Of a DNA stretch of 64,000 nt, positions 31,350 to 33,834 are shown in pieces. Below the pieces are notes generated by a model that saw nothing but the letters and a program-made list of their open reading frames with translations, searched no databases and was not told where the DNA came from. The translations under genes were made by a program, and so were the position numbers. This stretch comes from Draconibacterium orientale. GTDB lineage: Bacteria > Bacteroidota > Bacteroidia > Bacteroidales > JAADGE01. Location: contig DYMH01000002.1 of assembly GCA_020721645.1 (NCBI GenBank), positions 4,793-68,792 on the forward strand, in the 5' to 3' direction. Every line of letters starts with the position of its first letter. Position 1 is the first letter of the stretch.

Positions 31350-31422
<73 letters not shown>

Positions 31423-31457: not shown

Positions 31458-31541
31458 GCTCCGGTGGCGGAATAGGTAGACGCGCAGGACTTAAAATCCT
31501 GTGACCATTAGGTCGTGCCGGTTCGATTCCGGCCCGGAGTA
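31458..31541 (+). tRNA. tRNA-Leu (TAA)
   Basis: Class II tRNA with long variable arm. Acceptor GCTCCGG/CCGGAGT (G1:U72), anticodon loop CTTAAAA, T-arm GCCGG-TTCGATT-CCGGC. Confidence 0.85.
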
Positions 31542-31544
31542 CGA

Positions 31545-31580
31545 AAAACCTTCCTGCATCAGCTCGAAGGTTTTTTATTT
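31545..31580 (+). terminator. Intrinsic terminator after the tRNA-Gly/tRNA-Leu pair
   Basis: AAAACCTTC - 12-nt loop - GAAGGTTTT continuing into TTTTTTATTTT. Confidence 0.7.
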
Positions 31581-31600: not shown

Positions 31601-32197
31601 TTGTCGGACTTTTACAAAACCATAGAATCTTCATCGGAAGGGCAGTTCAAAGACCGCGGCAGCAAGTTTTTGGCTTATGCCTATCCTGTTAAAAATGAAA
31701 AGGATATAGATGCGTTACGAACCGAGTTGCGAAAAAAACATTTCGATGCCCGGCATCATGTGTACGCTTTTATGCTTGGTGCAGAAAGTAAAACGTACAG
31801 AGCTTCGGACGACGGCGAACCGTCTAATTCCTCCGGGCAACCCGTTTTGGGGCAGATTCGTTCTTTTGAACTGACTGATATTTTAGTGGTGGTTGTTCGC
31901 TATTTCGGAGGTACAAAACTCGGAGTGCCCGGATTAATCCATGCCTACAAAACAGCAGCTCACGATGCTTTAATAAATGCAAAAATTATAACTCAAACCA
32001 TTACCGAAAACTTGTCGGTAGAATTTGATTATCCTCTGATGAATGTTGTGATGCACATTGCAAAAGATGAAAATTTGGAACAAAGCGAACAAAATTTTGA
32101 ACTCTCGTGTCGTATCGTTTTTCGCATACCTCAAAGTGCCTTTGAACGAATTTCGGAAAAATTTAAAGCAATTCATGGTGTTAAAATTTCAAAATAA
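31601..32197 (+). CDS. yigZ: IMPACT/YigZ-family protein (UPF0029)
   Basis: 198 aa. Motifs: FKDRGSKFLAYAYPV, ARHHVYAF, DDGEPSNSSGQP, VVVVRYFGGTKLG. It uses a TTG start only 20 nt after the preceding terminator. Confidence 0.8.
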   Translation: MSDFYKTIESSSEGQFKDRGSKFLAYAYPVKNEKDIDALRTELRKKHFDARHHVYAFMLGAESKTYRASDDGEPSNSSGQPVLGQIRSFELTDILVVVVRYFGGTKLGVPGLIHAYKTAAHDALINAKIITQTITENLSVEFDYPLMNVVMHIAKDENLEQSEQNFELSCRIVFRIPQSAFERISEKFKAIHGVKISK

Positions 32198-32266
32198 TTT
32201 CCGATTTTGTGATTCATTTAATTTTTTTCTTTACATTTGTAAACGATATAAAATTAAAGTTATCGT

Positions 32267-32386
32267 ATGAGAACCGAAATCCAATTTGATGATATAAAGA
32301 GAATTACTCTCTGCCTAAAACCTGTCGTATTTTACCAATCGACAGGTTTTTTTATTTTTATCACACGCCGATTCAAAAATATTTAA
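32267..32386 (+). promoter_or_regulatory. Candidate pyrBI leader ORF (39 codons) running through a terminator hairpin
   Basis: Hand translation from the ATG at 32267 gives MRTEIQFDDIKRITLCLKPVVFYQSTGFFIFITRRFKNI, with stop at 32384-32386, 12 nt before the pyrB ATG. The ORF spans the hairpin at 32317-32350. Confidence 0.4.
32317..32359 (+). terminator. Intrinsic terminator / attenuator immediately upstream of pyrB
   Basis: AAAACCTGTCG (32317-32327) pairs with CGACAGGTTTT (32340-32350), 12-nt loop TATTTTACCAAT, then TTTTTTTATTTTT. Only about 40 nt separate it from the pyrB start. Confidence 0.7.
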
Positions 32387-32398
32387 AATAATACGAAA

Positions 32399-33322
32399 AT
32401 GAAAAACAGAAGTCTTGTTTCGATAAATGACTATTCTACCGACAATATTTCGGAAATTTTACGACGCACCGAATTGTTTGAGAAAAAGCCCGTCCAAAAG
32501 ATATTAGACGGCAAAGTGGTTGCTACACTTTTTTTTGAACCCTCAACCCGCACACGGCTCAGTTTTGAGAGTGCCGTAAATAAATTGGGCGGGAAAGTTA
32601 TCGGATTCACCGATTCTTCATCATCGAGCGTATCCAAAGGCGAAAGTTTAAAAGATACCATCAAAACAGTTGCCAATTACTGCGACCTGATTGTGATGCG
32701 GCACCCTTTGGAAGGCAGTGCGAAATATGCTTCGGAACTGTCGAAAGTGCCCATTATCAATGCGGGCGACGGAGCCAACCAGCACCCGACACAAACCTTG
32801 CTTGATATGTATTCGATAATCAAAACACAAGGAACACTCCAAAATCTGAACATCTTTTTGGTCGGCGATTTAAAATACGGGCGAACCGTCCACTCTTTGC
32901 TTATGGCGATGAGCCGCTACAATCCGGTTTTTAATTTTATATCTCACGAAAAATTACGTATTCCGGACGAATACAAAATGTATCTTAACAATATCGGCAT
33001 AAAATATTATGAGCACAGCGAGTTTGAAAAAATTCAATATGCCGATATTTTATACATGACACGAGTTCAAAAAGAACGATTTTCGGACCCAATGGAATAC
33101 GAAAAAACAAAGGATACCTATATTCTTAAAAATGATATGTTGAATGATACGAAAGACAATCTAAGAATACTTCACCCACTGCCCCGAGTTACGGAAGTGG
33201 ACAATGATGTGGACGAAAACCGGAAAGCCTATTATTTCGACCAAGCTCTCAACGGAGTTTTCACACGGCAGGCAATCATTTCTTCGATTTTGGACATTAA
33301 GCCCGAAAATGATACTAACTAA
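32399..33322 (+). CDS. pyrB: Aspartate carbamoyltransferase catalytic subunit
   Basis: 307 aa. Motifs: [22 protein letters not shown]. Confidence 0.95.
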
Positions 33323-33369: not shown

Positions 33370-33834
33370 ATGCCAAAAGAAAAAAAATTAATGGTCAACG
33401 CAATCAAAGACGGCACCGTTATCGACCATATCCCGGCAAAACACCTTTTTAAAGTGATTTCGATTCTCGGATTGGACAAAATTAAAACAACCATCACCTT
33501 TGGAACGAATCTGGAAAGTGATAAGCTCGGTAAAAAAGCAATTATCAAGATTTCGGAAGTCTTTTTCGAAGACCAGGACATCAATAAAATTGCATTAATC
33601 ACGCAGGAAGCTCAGTTAAATATCATAAAAAATTATGAAGTCGTTGAGAAAAAACCGGTTCGTATTCCCGATTTTGTTGTAGGTATTGCTAAATGTGTAA
33701 ATCCAAAGTGCATTACAAACAACGAAAATATGCTCACCCGATTCACCATTGTCGATAAAAAAGACATTGCCCTGAAATGCGAATATTGCGAAAAAATTAC
33801 CGATAAAGAACACATCAAAATACTAAAAAACTGA
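33370..33834 (+). CDS. pyrI: Aspartate carbamoyltransferase regulatory subunit
   Basis: 154 aa. Motifs: NAIKDGTVIDHIP and C-terminal zinc motif CVNPKC...CEYCE. Confidence 0.92.
   Translation: MPKEKKLMVNAIKDGTVIDHIPAKHLFKVISILGLDKIKTTITFGTNLESDKLGKKAIIKISEVFFEDQDINKIALITQEAQLNIIKNYEVVEKKPVRIPDFVVGIAKCVNPKCITNNENMLTRFTIVDKKDIALKCEYCEKITDKEHIKILKN

Follow-up and report, generated by a model that had tools for sequence, protein, structure and literature searches.

In the window, the whole 64,000-nt stretch of Draconibacterium orientale DNA that was analysed, yigZ is followed by pyrB and pyrI on the same strand. The 201-nt spacer between yigZ and pyrB contains a candidate promoter, a 5' stem-loop, a short open reading frame (ORF) and a terminator hairpin, as follows.

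31601-32197, forward strand: yigZ (IMPACT/UPF0029 family; Pfam PF01205, E = 1e-34), with its stop codon at 32195-32197.
32206-32239, forward strand: candidate Bacteroidetes-type promoter, consisting of TTTG (32206-32209), a 22-nt spacer and the -7 box TACATTTG (32232-32239).
32243-32266, forward strand: 5' stem-loop, ACGATA / TATCGT with a 12-nt A-rich loop (-4.4 kcal/mol, z = -2.1).
32267-32386, forward strand: leader ORF MRTEIQFDDIKRITLCLKPVVFYQSTGFFIFITRRFKNI, 39 codons with an ATG start and a TAA stop, taken from the ORF list and without a Pfam family.
32291-32306, forward strand: conserved block GATATAAAGAGAATTA, single-copy in the window.
32317-32359, forward strand: intrinsic terminator (candidate attenuator), with the 5' arm AAAACCTGTCG at 32317-32327, the loop at 32328-32339, the 3' arm CGACAGGTTTT at 32340-32350 and the U-tract to 32359.
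32360-32398, forward strand: spacer from the terminator to the pyrB start codon, lacking a TAnnTTTG motif.
32399-33322, forward strand: pyrB (Pfam OTCace_N/OTCace).
33370-33834, forward strand: pyrI (Pfam PyrI/PyrI_C).

The order of the genes is common: in 145 of 152 related loci, pyrB has yigZ as its immediate upstream neighbour in the same orientation, mostly with gaps of 100-250 nt. We know of no functional link between yigZ and pyrB. The ORF list contains no minus-strand ORF of at least 30 aa in this region. Upstream of yigZ, two tRNA genes (31350-31422 and 31458-31541) are followed by a terminator (31543-31576), which ends 25 nt before the assigned TTG start of yigZ, so that a yigZ promoter would hardly fit in between; expression of yigZ may depend on read-through, or the start codon may be wrongly assigned.

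The hairpin before pyrB has an 11-bp stem, a 12-nt loop (TATTTTACCAAT / UAUUUUACCAAU) and a T-run of the form T7-A-T5, whose end at 32359 is 39 nt from the pyrB ATG (32399). This agrees with the first-pass annotation of this DNA, which had placed an 11-bp hairpin with a U-tract about 40 nt before that codon. The 51-nt hairpin segment folded at -14.4 kcal/mol, compared with -3.3 +/- 1.8 kcal/mol for 200 dinucleotide shuffles (z = -6.3), none of which was as stable as the native segment. A terminator scan with a loop limit of 8 missed this hairpin, and a scan allowing loops of up to 14 detected it. By its sequence, the hairpin in the pyrB leader is a real and strong terminator.

The yigZ stop codon is 120 nt from the hairpin, and the promoter motif TTTG-N22-TACATTTG sits between the two. 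The pattern used was the Bacteroidetes -33/-7 consensus, as in the first-pass annotation. In the window, the full pattern had 11 matches against 5.5 expected, and the TAnnTTTG octamer of the -7 box was about 2-fold enriched in intergenic DNA; a promoter predicted from this consensus is a weak prediction. The transcription start is predicted at about 32243-32246, which would give a leader of about 155 nt to pyrB and about 115 nt from the start to the terminator. The -7 box is 160 nt from the start codon for pyrB; where other genes of the window have a box next to them, this distance is 16-70 nt. It had been argued earlier that the terminator leaves too little room for a promoter in front of pyrB, so that pyrBI transcripts must read through it. 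The argument from room is weak because Bacteroidetes leaders can be very short (16-70 nt in the window). The conclusion itself is upheld on other grounds, since a promoter motif lies upstream of the hairpin and none lies downstream. A separate pyrB transcription start downstream of 32359, which would have spoken against this, was looked for by motif, and 32360-32398 contains no TAnnTTTG.

We searched the PyrB and YigZ proteins against 5.8 billion proteins and then looked up the contigs. PyrB-based scans of one genome per GTDB species plus JGI metagenomes added 160 Bacteroidales loci at 70-76% identity. The exact PyrB of the window was found on 24 contigs, with labels (TB_PC08_66, TB_GS09_5) that suggest sulfidic-cave biofilm samples; in six such loci that were compared, the leader was identical except for two SNPs in L165, both outside the hairpin. 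Only three further lineages carried the element, namely L167/L168 (PyrB 85% identical), L175 (PyrB 86%) and L173/L174 (YigZ 78%), and in all three the order of promoter, 5' stem-loop, ATG-ORF, terminator and pyrB recurred. The next nearest PyrBs, L169 (83% identical to that of L175) and L172 (81%), were both without the terminator, and YigZ relatives at 65-67% identity had no pyrB after yigZ. The element was absent from all of the about 160 more distant Bacteroidales pyrB loci (PyrB at most 76% identical), and a search of the window and 173 loci with the covariance model R1 gave neither diverged nor additional copies. Two top PyrB matches, P0001 and P0002 (529 and 424 aa), were set aside as internally duplicated; they are most likely assembly artefacts of more distant PyrBs. 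As far as these searches reach, the element is confined to a small clade of four uncultured lineages.

The terminator was present in all four lineages (window, L167, L173 and L175), with folding energies of -14 to -19 kcal/mol and z = -4.4 to -6.6. Each stem has 10-13 bp with 5-6 G-C pairs and is followed by T7-T10, the make-up of an intrinsic terminator, and 33-66 nt lie between the end of the T-run and pyrB. All four share the core CCTGTCG-loop-CG(A/G)CAGG. Between lineages, 18-21 of the 22 stem bases are identical (82-95%; P = 1e-4 to 1e-7 against the neutral rate). The fourfold-degenerate sites of pyrB are 38-41% identical, where about 26% is expected at random, so that neutral sites are near saturation. 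Across the four lineages, one stem pair is compensatory, two show wobble changes and 7 of 11 are invariant. Covariation support for the stem was not significant in a shuffle control (135/500), four sequences being too sparse, and the case for the stem therefore rests on its conservation against the saturated neutral sites.

The upstream part of the leader is conserved as well. L167 (TACTTTTG), L173 (TAAATTCG) and L175 (TAACTTTG) all retain a -7 box at the corresponding position, and its distance to the leader ATG is 27 nt, invariant in three lineages. The stretch from the -7 box to the ATG is identical at 24-31 of 38 positions between lineages (63-82%), compared with about 41% at fourfold sites. 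The 5' stem-loop ends 1 nt before the leader ATG at 32267 and recurs in register in L167 and L173, where the only changes are to wobble pairs. None of the four lineages has a TAnnTTTG motif in the stretch from the hairpin to pyrB. All four thus keep the terminator, a promoter motif upstream of it, the frame of the ORF described below and the lack of a promoter motif downstream. Judged against the fourfold-degenerate sites, the terminator and the anatomy from promoter to ATG have been conserved under selection.

The leader ORF of the window extends across the two arms and on through the U-tract, with its stop 12 nt before pyrB, so that every statement in the first-pass annotation about its sequence (39 codons from 32267, through the hairpin) holds. 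One ATG-ORF per lineage extends towards the hairpin, and in every case its frame is the one in which the invariant core is read as CCT GTC G. The four ORFs differ in where they end.

Window: 39 codons, stop after the terminator.
L175: 35 codons, stop in the loop.
L167: 15 codons, stop abutting the 5' arm (0 nt).
L173: 15 codons, stop 3 nt before the 5' arm.

The course through both arms, which had been likened to that in E. coli, is therefore a feature of the window and not of L167, L173 or L175. The ATG-to-CCT distances are 54, 54, 51 and 90 nt, and their differences are multiples of 3. The frame is still open even though codons 2-9 of the window and L173 are scrambled, with 11 of 24 nt identical; in L175, a new ATG in new sequence is still in the shared frame. 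These features suggest that the reading frame has been maintained in the clade. The ORF alone is weak evidence, because in a loose shuffle test about 50% of shuffled leaders gave some ATG-ORF touching the hairpin. With at least 15 codons this fell to 13-22%, and in the shared frame to 4.5-8.5% (0.045-0.085) per lineage; the statistics of the ORF remain modest, coming from only four lineages, not independent of each other. The conservation of hairpin and short ORF upstream of pyrB in relatives, which had been proposed earlier as a check, is thus seen in four lineages with a shared frame, but extends neither to the peptide nor to the about 160 distant loci.

The leader peptide is not conserved across the clade, with any likeness limited to the stretch encoded by the block GATATAAAGAGAATTA. 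Pfam searches with the 39-aa and 35-aa leader peptides gave nothing at E<=1, and no repeated codon is common to the four peptides. The block is identical in the window and L173 and has one substitution in L175, and only ATAAAG is kept in all four lineages. Without any synonymous difference, its conservation is at the nucleotide level; the unconserved peptide and the lack of synonymous variation in the block give no sign of selection on the protein. A weak mini-hairpin (AGAGA at 32298-32302 with TCTCT at 32308-32312) overlaps the block. We rejected it as a part of the core, as it is absent from L167 and has no compensatory change; L167 lacks both the mini-hairpin and most of the block and keeps the ORF and the terminator. 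The leader ATG follows directly after the 5' stem-loop, with C at -3 and no A-rich context in three lineages. Initiation from such a context may be poor in this phylum, which does not use Shine-Dalgarno pairing. The only property that all four ORFs share is that the 5' arm would be covered by a ribosome completing their translation.

In L175, the pyrB leader contains two inserted genes, for an antitoxin-like protein of 103 aa and a PIN-domain toxin of 88 aa (902-1576 of that locus). The 720-nt insertion separates the conserved promoter box TAACTTTG (853-860, just after yigZ) from the ORF and terminator (1628-1752), and the ORF/terminator module remained beside pyrB despite it. From this arrangement, the pyrB promoter would drive transcription of the cassette and the attenuator would end it. 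The gap between terminator and pyrB in this lineage only also has a tandem repeat, TCAAATTC TCAAATTC TCAAATTTCC, at 1770-1800.

Our leading interpretation, put forward tentatively, is that the element is a transcription attenuator of pyrBI that works by ribosome occlusion. Transcription would start at the promoter just after yigZ, at about 32243. When the polymerase runs ahead of the first ribosome, the hairpin would form and transcription would end before pyrB. When a ribosome follows closely on the leader ORF, it would cover the 5' arm, either while translating it or when halted at a stop codon 0-3 nt upstream. With the 5' arm occupied, no hairpin would form and the polymerase would enter pyrBI. 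On the analogy of E. coli pyrBI and pyrE, what varies would most likely be the speed of the polymerase at the U-runs in the loop and U-tract, and hence the level of UTP. Pyrimidine (UTP) sensing and UTP-sensitive pausing would follow from that analogy, and we likewise infer the transcription start, the translation of the ORF and its coupling to transcription. U-runs are present in all four terminator loops (UAUUUUA, AGUUUUA, AGUUUA and UUUUU), a frequency not statistically unusual in AT-rich sequence (about 0.4 per loop by a rough estimate). In E. coli, a stop codon 5 bp before a terminator lowers termination from about 90% to under 10%, only with coupled translation (PMC4824070). Ribosome coupling across pyrL is described as suppressing the pyrBI terminator in a passage of PMC5021804 that cites Roland et al. 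1988.

A simpler explanation is that the hairpin is a plain, unregulated terminator or insulator, which ends transcripts of yigZ (in L175, of the toxin-antitoxin genes) and of the intergenic promoter. The pyrBI genes would then be expressed by leakage or from a promoter other than TAnnTTTG, and the ORF would be incidental. The hairpin does lie downstream of yigZ in the same orientation, hairpin-reaching ORFs are common in shuffled AT-rich sequence under the loose criterion, the peptide is unconserved and the promoter consensus is weak (11 matches against 5.5 expected). However, 120 nt separate the yigZ stop from the hairpin, and they hold a conserved promoter motif, a stem-loop and an ATG. About 160 loci with yigZ-pyrB synteny have no terminator at this place, so that yigZ needs none in general. 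No lineage has a -7 motif after the hairpin, and the ORF frame has been kept across scrambled sequence and after the L175 insertion. We consider a plain terminator unlikely.

The conservation of the RNA itself could point instead to antitermination by a trans-acting factor, such as a PyrR-like RNA-binding protein, acting on the AUAAAG block, the 5' stem-loop or the CCUGUCG/CGRCAGG stem, with the ORF irrelevant. The block GATATAAAGAGAATTA and the stem core are kept at the nucleotide level, and 7 of 11 pairs are invariant despite saturated neutral sites, which exceeds the need of a generic hairpin. Yet L167 has kept the ORF and terminator without most of the block and without the mini-hairpin, there is no conserved alternative structure for a factor to stabilise, and no candidate regulator gene was identified. 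PyrR attenuators, known from Bacillus and relatives (RF00515), likewise have a terminator in a pyr leader, but they require a PyrR-binding stem-loop and antiterminator/anti-antiterminator alternatives, neither of which was found here. RF00515 gave no match at E<=10 in the window (401 nt) or at E<=1 in L167, L173 and L175. Rfam searches of the window, L167, L173 and L175 at gathering and permissive thresholds returned only sub-threshold, terminator-driven matches (rnk_leader, rli38 and similar). An alternative (antiterminator) pairing of the 5' arm common to the four lineages was not found; in the window, pairing is possible between ACGAUA at the 5' end and UGUCGU in the 5' arm, and this trp- or riboswitch-type fold was rejected as it is not kept in the other lineages. 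Because there is no shared alternative pairing and no Rfam match, attenuation of the trp, riboswitch or PyrR type is disfavoured, and we regard control by a factor as improbable.

A stand-alone small RNA or small-protein gene beside pyrB, composed of the promoter, about 115 nt and the terminator, is very unlikely: the two signals do bound a compact unit with a conserved 5' stem-loop, but the 720-nt insertion in L175 splits the promoter from the ORF and terminator while the module persists beside pyrB, no recognisable promoter would remain for pyrB, the product of the ORF is unconserved and model R1 finds no other copy in the window or the 173 loci.

Attenuation by ribosome occlusion can be compared with several known systems. 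In E. coli and Salmonella pyrBI (pyrL), the operon is the same, and a terminator in the leader just before pyrB is spanned by a short ORF, translation of which is predicted here. The first-pass annotation had called the element pyrL-like; the topology bears this out, but a sequence relationship does not exist, with no Pfam match at E<=1 and a peptide that is unconserved even within the clade. Read directly, the E. coli leader has 44 codons running through GCCCCTC-AATC-GAGGGGC+T8 (7-bp stem), with the stop 3 nt and the T-run 23 nt before pyrB; the window has 39 codons, an 11-bp stem and T7AT5, with the stop 12 nt and the T-run 39 nt upstream of pyrB. In both leaders the U-tract is read as Phe codons. 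The window leader has no sequence homology to pyrL (Pfam PyrBI_leader, Rfam and direct reading), and it belongs to another phylum, with another promoter type and no Shine-Dalgarno site. The distance from ATG to hairpin is about 50 nt here and 89 nt in E. coli pyrL, the loop in the clade is large (11-12 nt in three lineages), unlike that of pyrL, and only one of the four lineages, the window, has a pyrL-like ORF that reads through. In contrast to E. coli pyrBI, no clearly distinct U-rich pause cluster precedes the hairpin here. The E. coli operon has a second control, UTP-sensitive reiterative transcription at AATTTG, for which the window has no evident counterpart. Reiterative transcription at the predicted start (AAAC) was considered here and dropped, as the motif is not kept in L173 (CAATCG).

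The ORFs that stop before the hairpin have a different counterpart. Bonekamp et al. in 1984 reportedly found that in rph-pyrE a reading frame ends a few nt before the terminator of a pyr gene, and that the trailing ribosome suppresses termination when low UTP slows the polymerase. This geometry is matched by L167 (stop at 0 nt) and L173 (3 nt), not by the window. In rph-pyrE a real gene, rph, supplies the upstream frame and pyrE is regulated; in L167 and L173 this frame is a leader ORF of 15 codons that has a promoter of its own, and control would act on pyrB.

Amino-acid attenuators also combine a leader peptide with a terminator, as here. They include Bacteroid-trp (RF01692), which we take to be a Trp leader-peptide attenuator, and ribosome-mediated attenuation would therefore exist in the phylum. 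Amino-acid attenuators have a regulatory codon run, a 2:3 antiterminator and a distant stop, more than 20 bp from the terminator (PMC4824070); the present element has none of these, and its stop abuts the terminator or lies within or beyond it. Bacteroid-trp has been reported as a cis-regulatory motif in Bacteroidetes (PMC2864571).

Most relatives of the clade have a different sequence in front of pyrB. A promoter region of roughly 60 nt, located 40-110 nt upstream of pyrB (about 2390-2460 in L012, for example), is shared by 106 of 157 other Bacteroidales pyrB loci (L004-L160) and is absent from the window. It comprises a near-palindromic 20-mer, GTTnnTAATTAATTAnnAAC (consensus AAAGTTTTTAATTAATTATCAACA), followed by ..TTCTTGAGTAAATTTG, and the distance from the -7 box to the pyrB ATG is fixed at 37-39 nt. 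The 20-mer resembles the operator of a DNA-binding regulator of pyrBI. In the sequences compared, the window clade has the terminator leader in place of this palindromic box.

With no homology to pyrL and no entry in Rfam, the element looks like an apparently convergent counterpart of the E. coli pyrBI attenuator. The mechanism had been thought undescribed in Bacteroidota, and our literature search indeed found no paper on pyrBI attenuation in Bacteroidetes. It is possible, though we would sooner doubt than assert it, that a ribosome-coupled, pyrimidine-sensing pyrBI attenuator arose independently in this Bacteroidales clade, which lacks Shine-Dalgarno sites, and replaced the palindromic-operator promoter of its relatives, with pyrL-type and pyrE-type geometries being interchangeable. 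If true, the enterobacterial logic of 'repression without a repressor' would have evolved convergently; if confirmed, direct occlusion of a terminator by the ribosome would control nucleotide biosynthesis outside Proteobacteria. The phylum initiates translation without Shine-Dalgarno pairing, and the coupling of transcription and translation there is essentially unstudied. Leader stops before, inside and after the terminator provide a natural mutagenesis series for the ribosome proximity that is required. Most sister lineages have the palindromic box, itself conserved, and a short leader in place of the terminator leader, evidence that pyrBI control has turned over rapidly. Since it occurs in just four uncultured lineages, among them metagenome-assembled genomes (MAGs) with labels (TB_PC08_66, TB_GS09_5 and SulCav) suggesting sulfidic-cave biofilms, the element is of limited practical importance.

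Two other kinds of upstream ORF (uORF) were noted among the relatives. A frame beginning M(K)LRQFL(S/T)NFD... occurs upstream of pyrB in L005, L006, L011, L044, L085, L093, L103, L108, L149 and others. We rejected it as a coding uORF, as it arises from the conserved promoter sequence ATGTTGAGACAATTCTTGAGTAAATTTG and would lie upstream of the transcription start; the case of MLRQFLSNFD... is a caution against reading ORFs in conserved AT-rich DNA as coding. L058, L151 and L077 have another long leader, with a Cys/His-rich uORF of 30-32 codons (MKPACICIHKHNYIISHMRIPSCHRNIIII; VKIISIAYSNMHSHFVHTCGFHQTIKVKIIFS) about 100 nt upstream of pyrB. Its stop overlaps the pyrB ATG (TGATG / ATGA) and there is no terminator. 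The uORF may represent a second, translational kind of pyrB control in the order.
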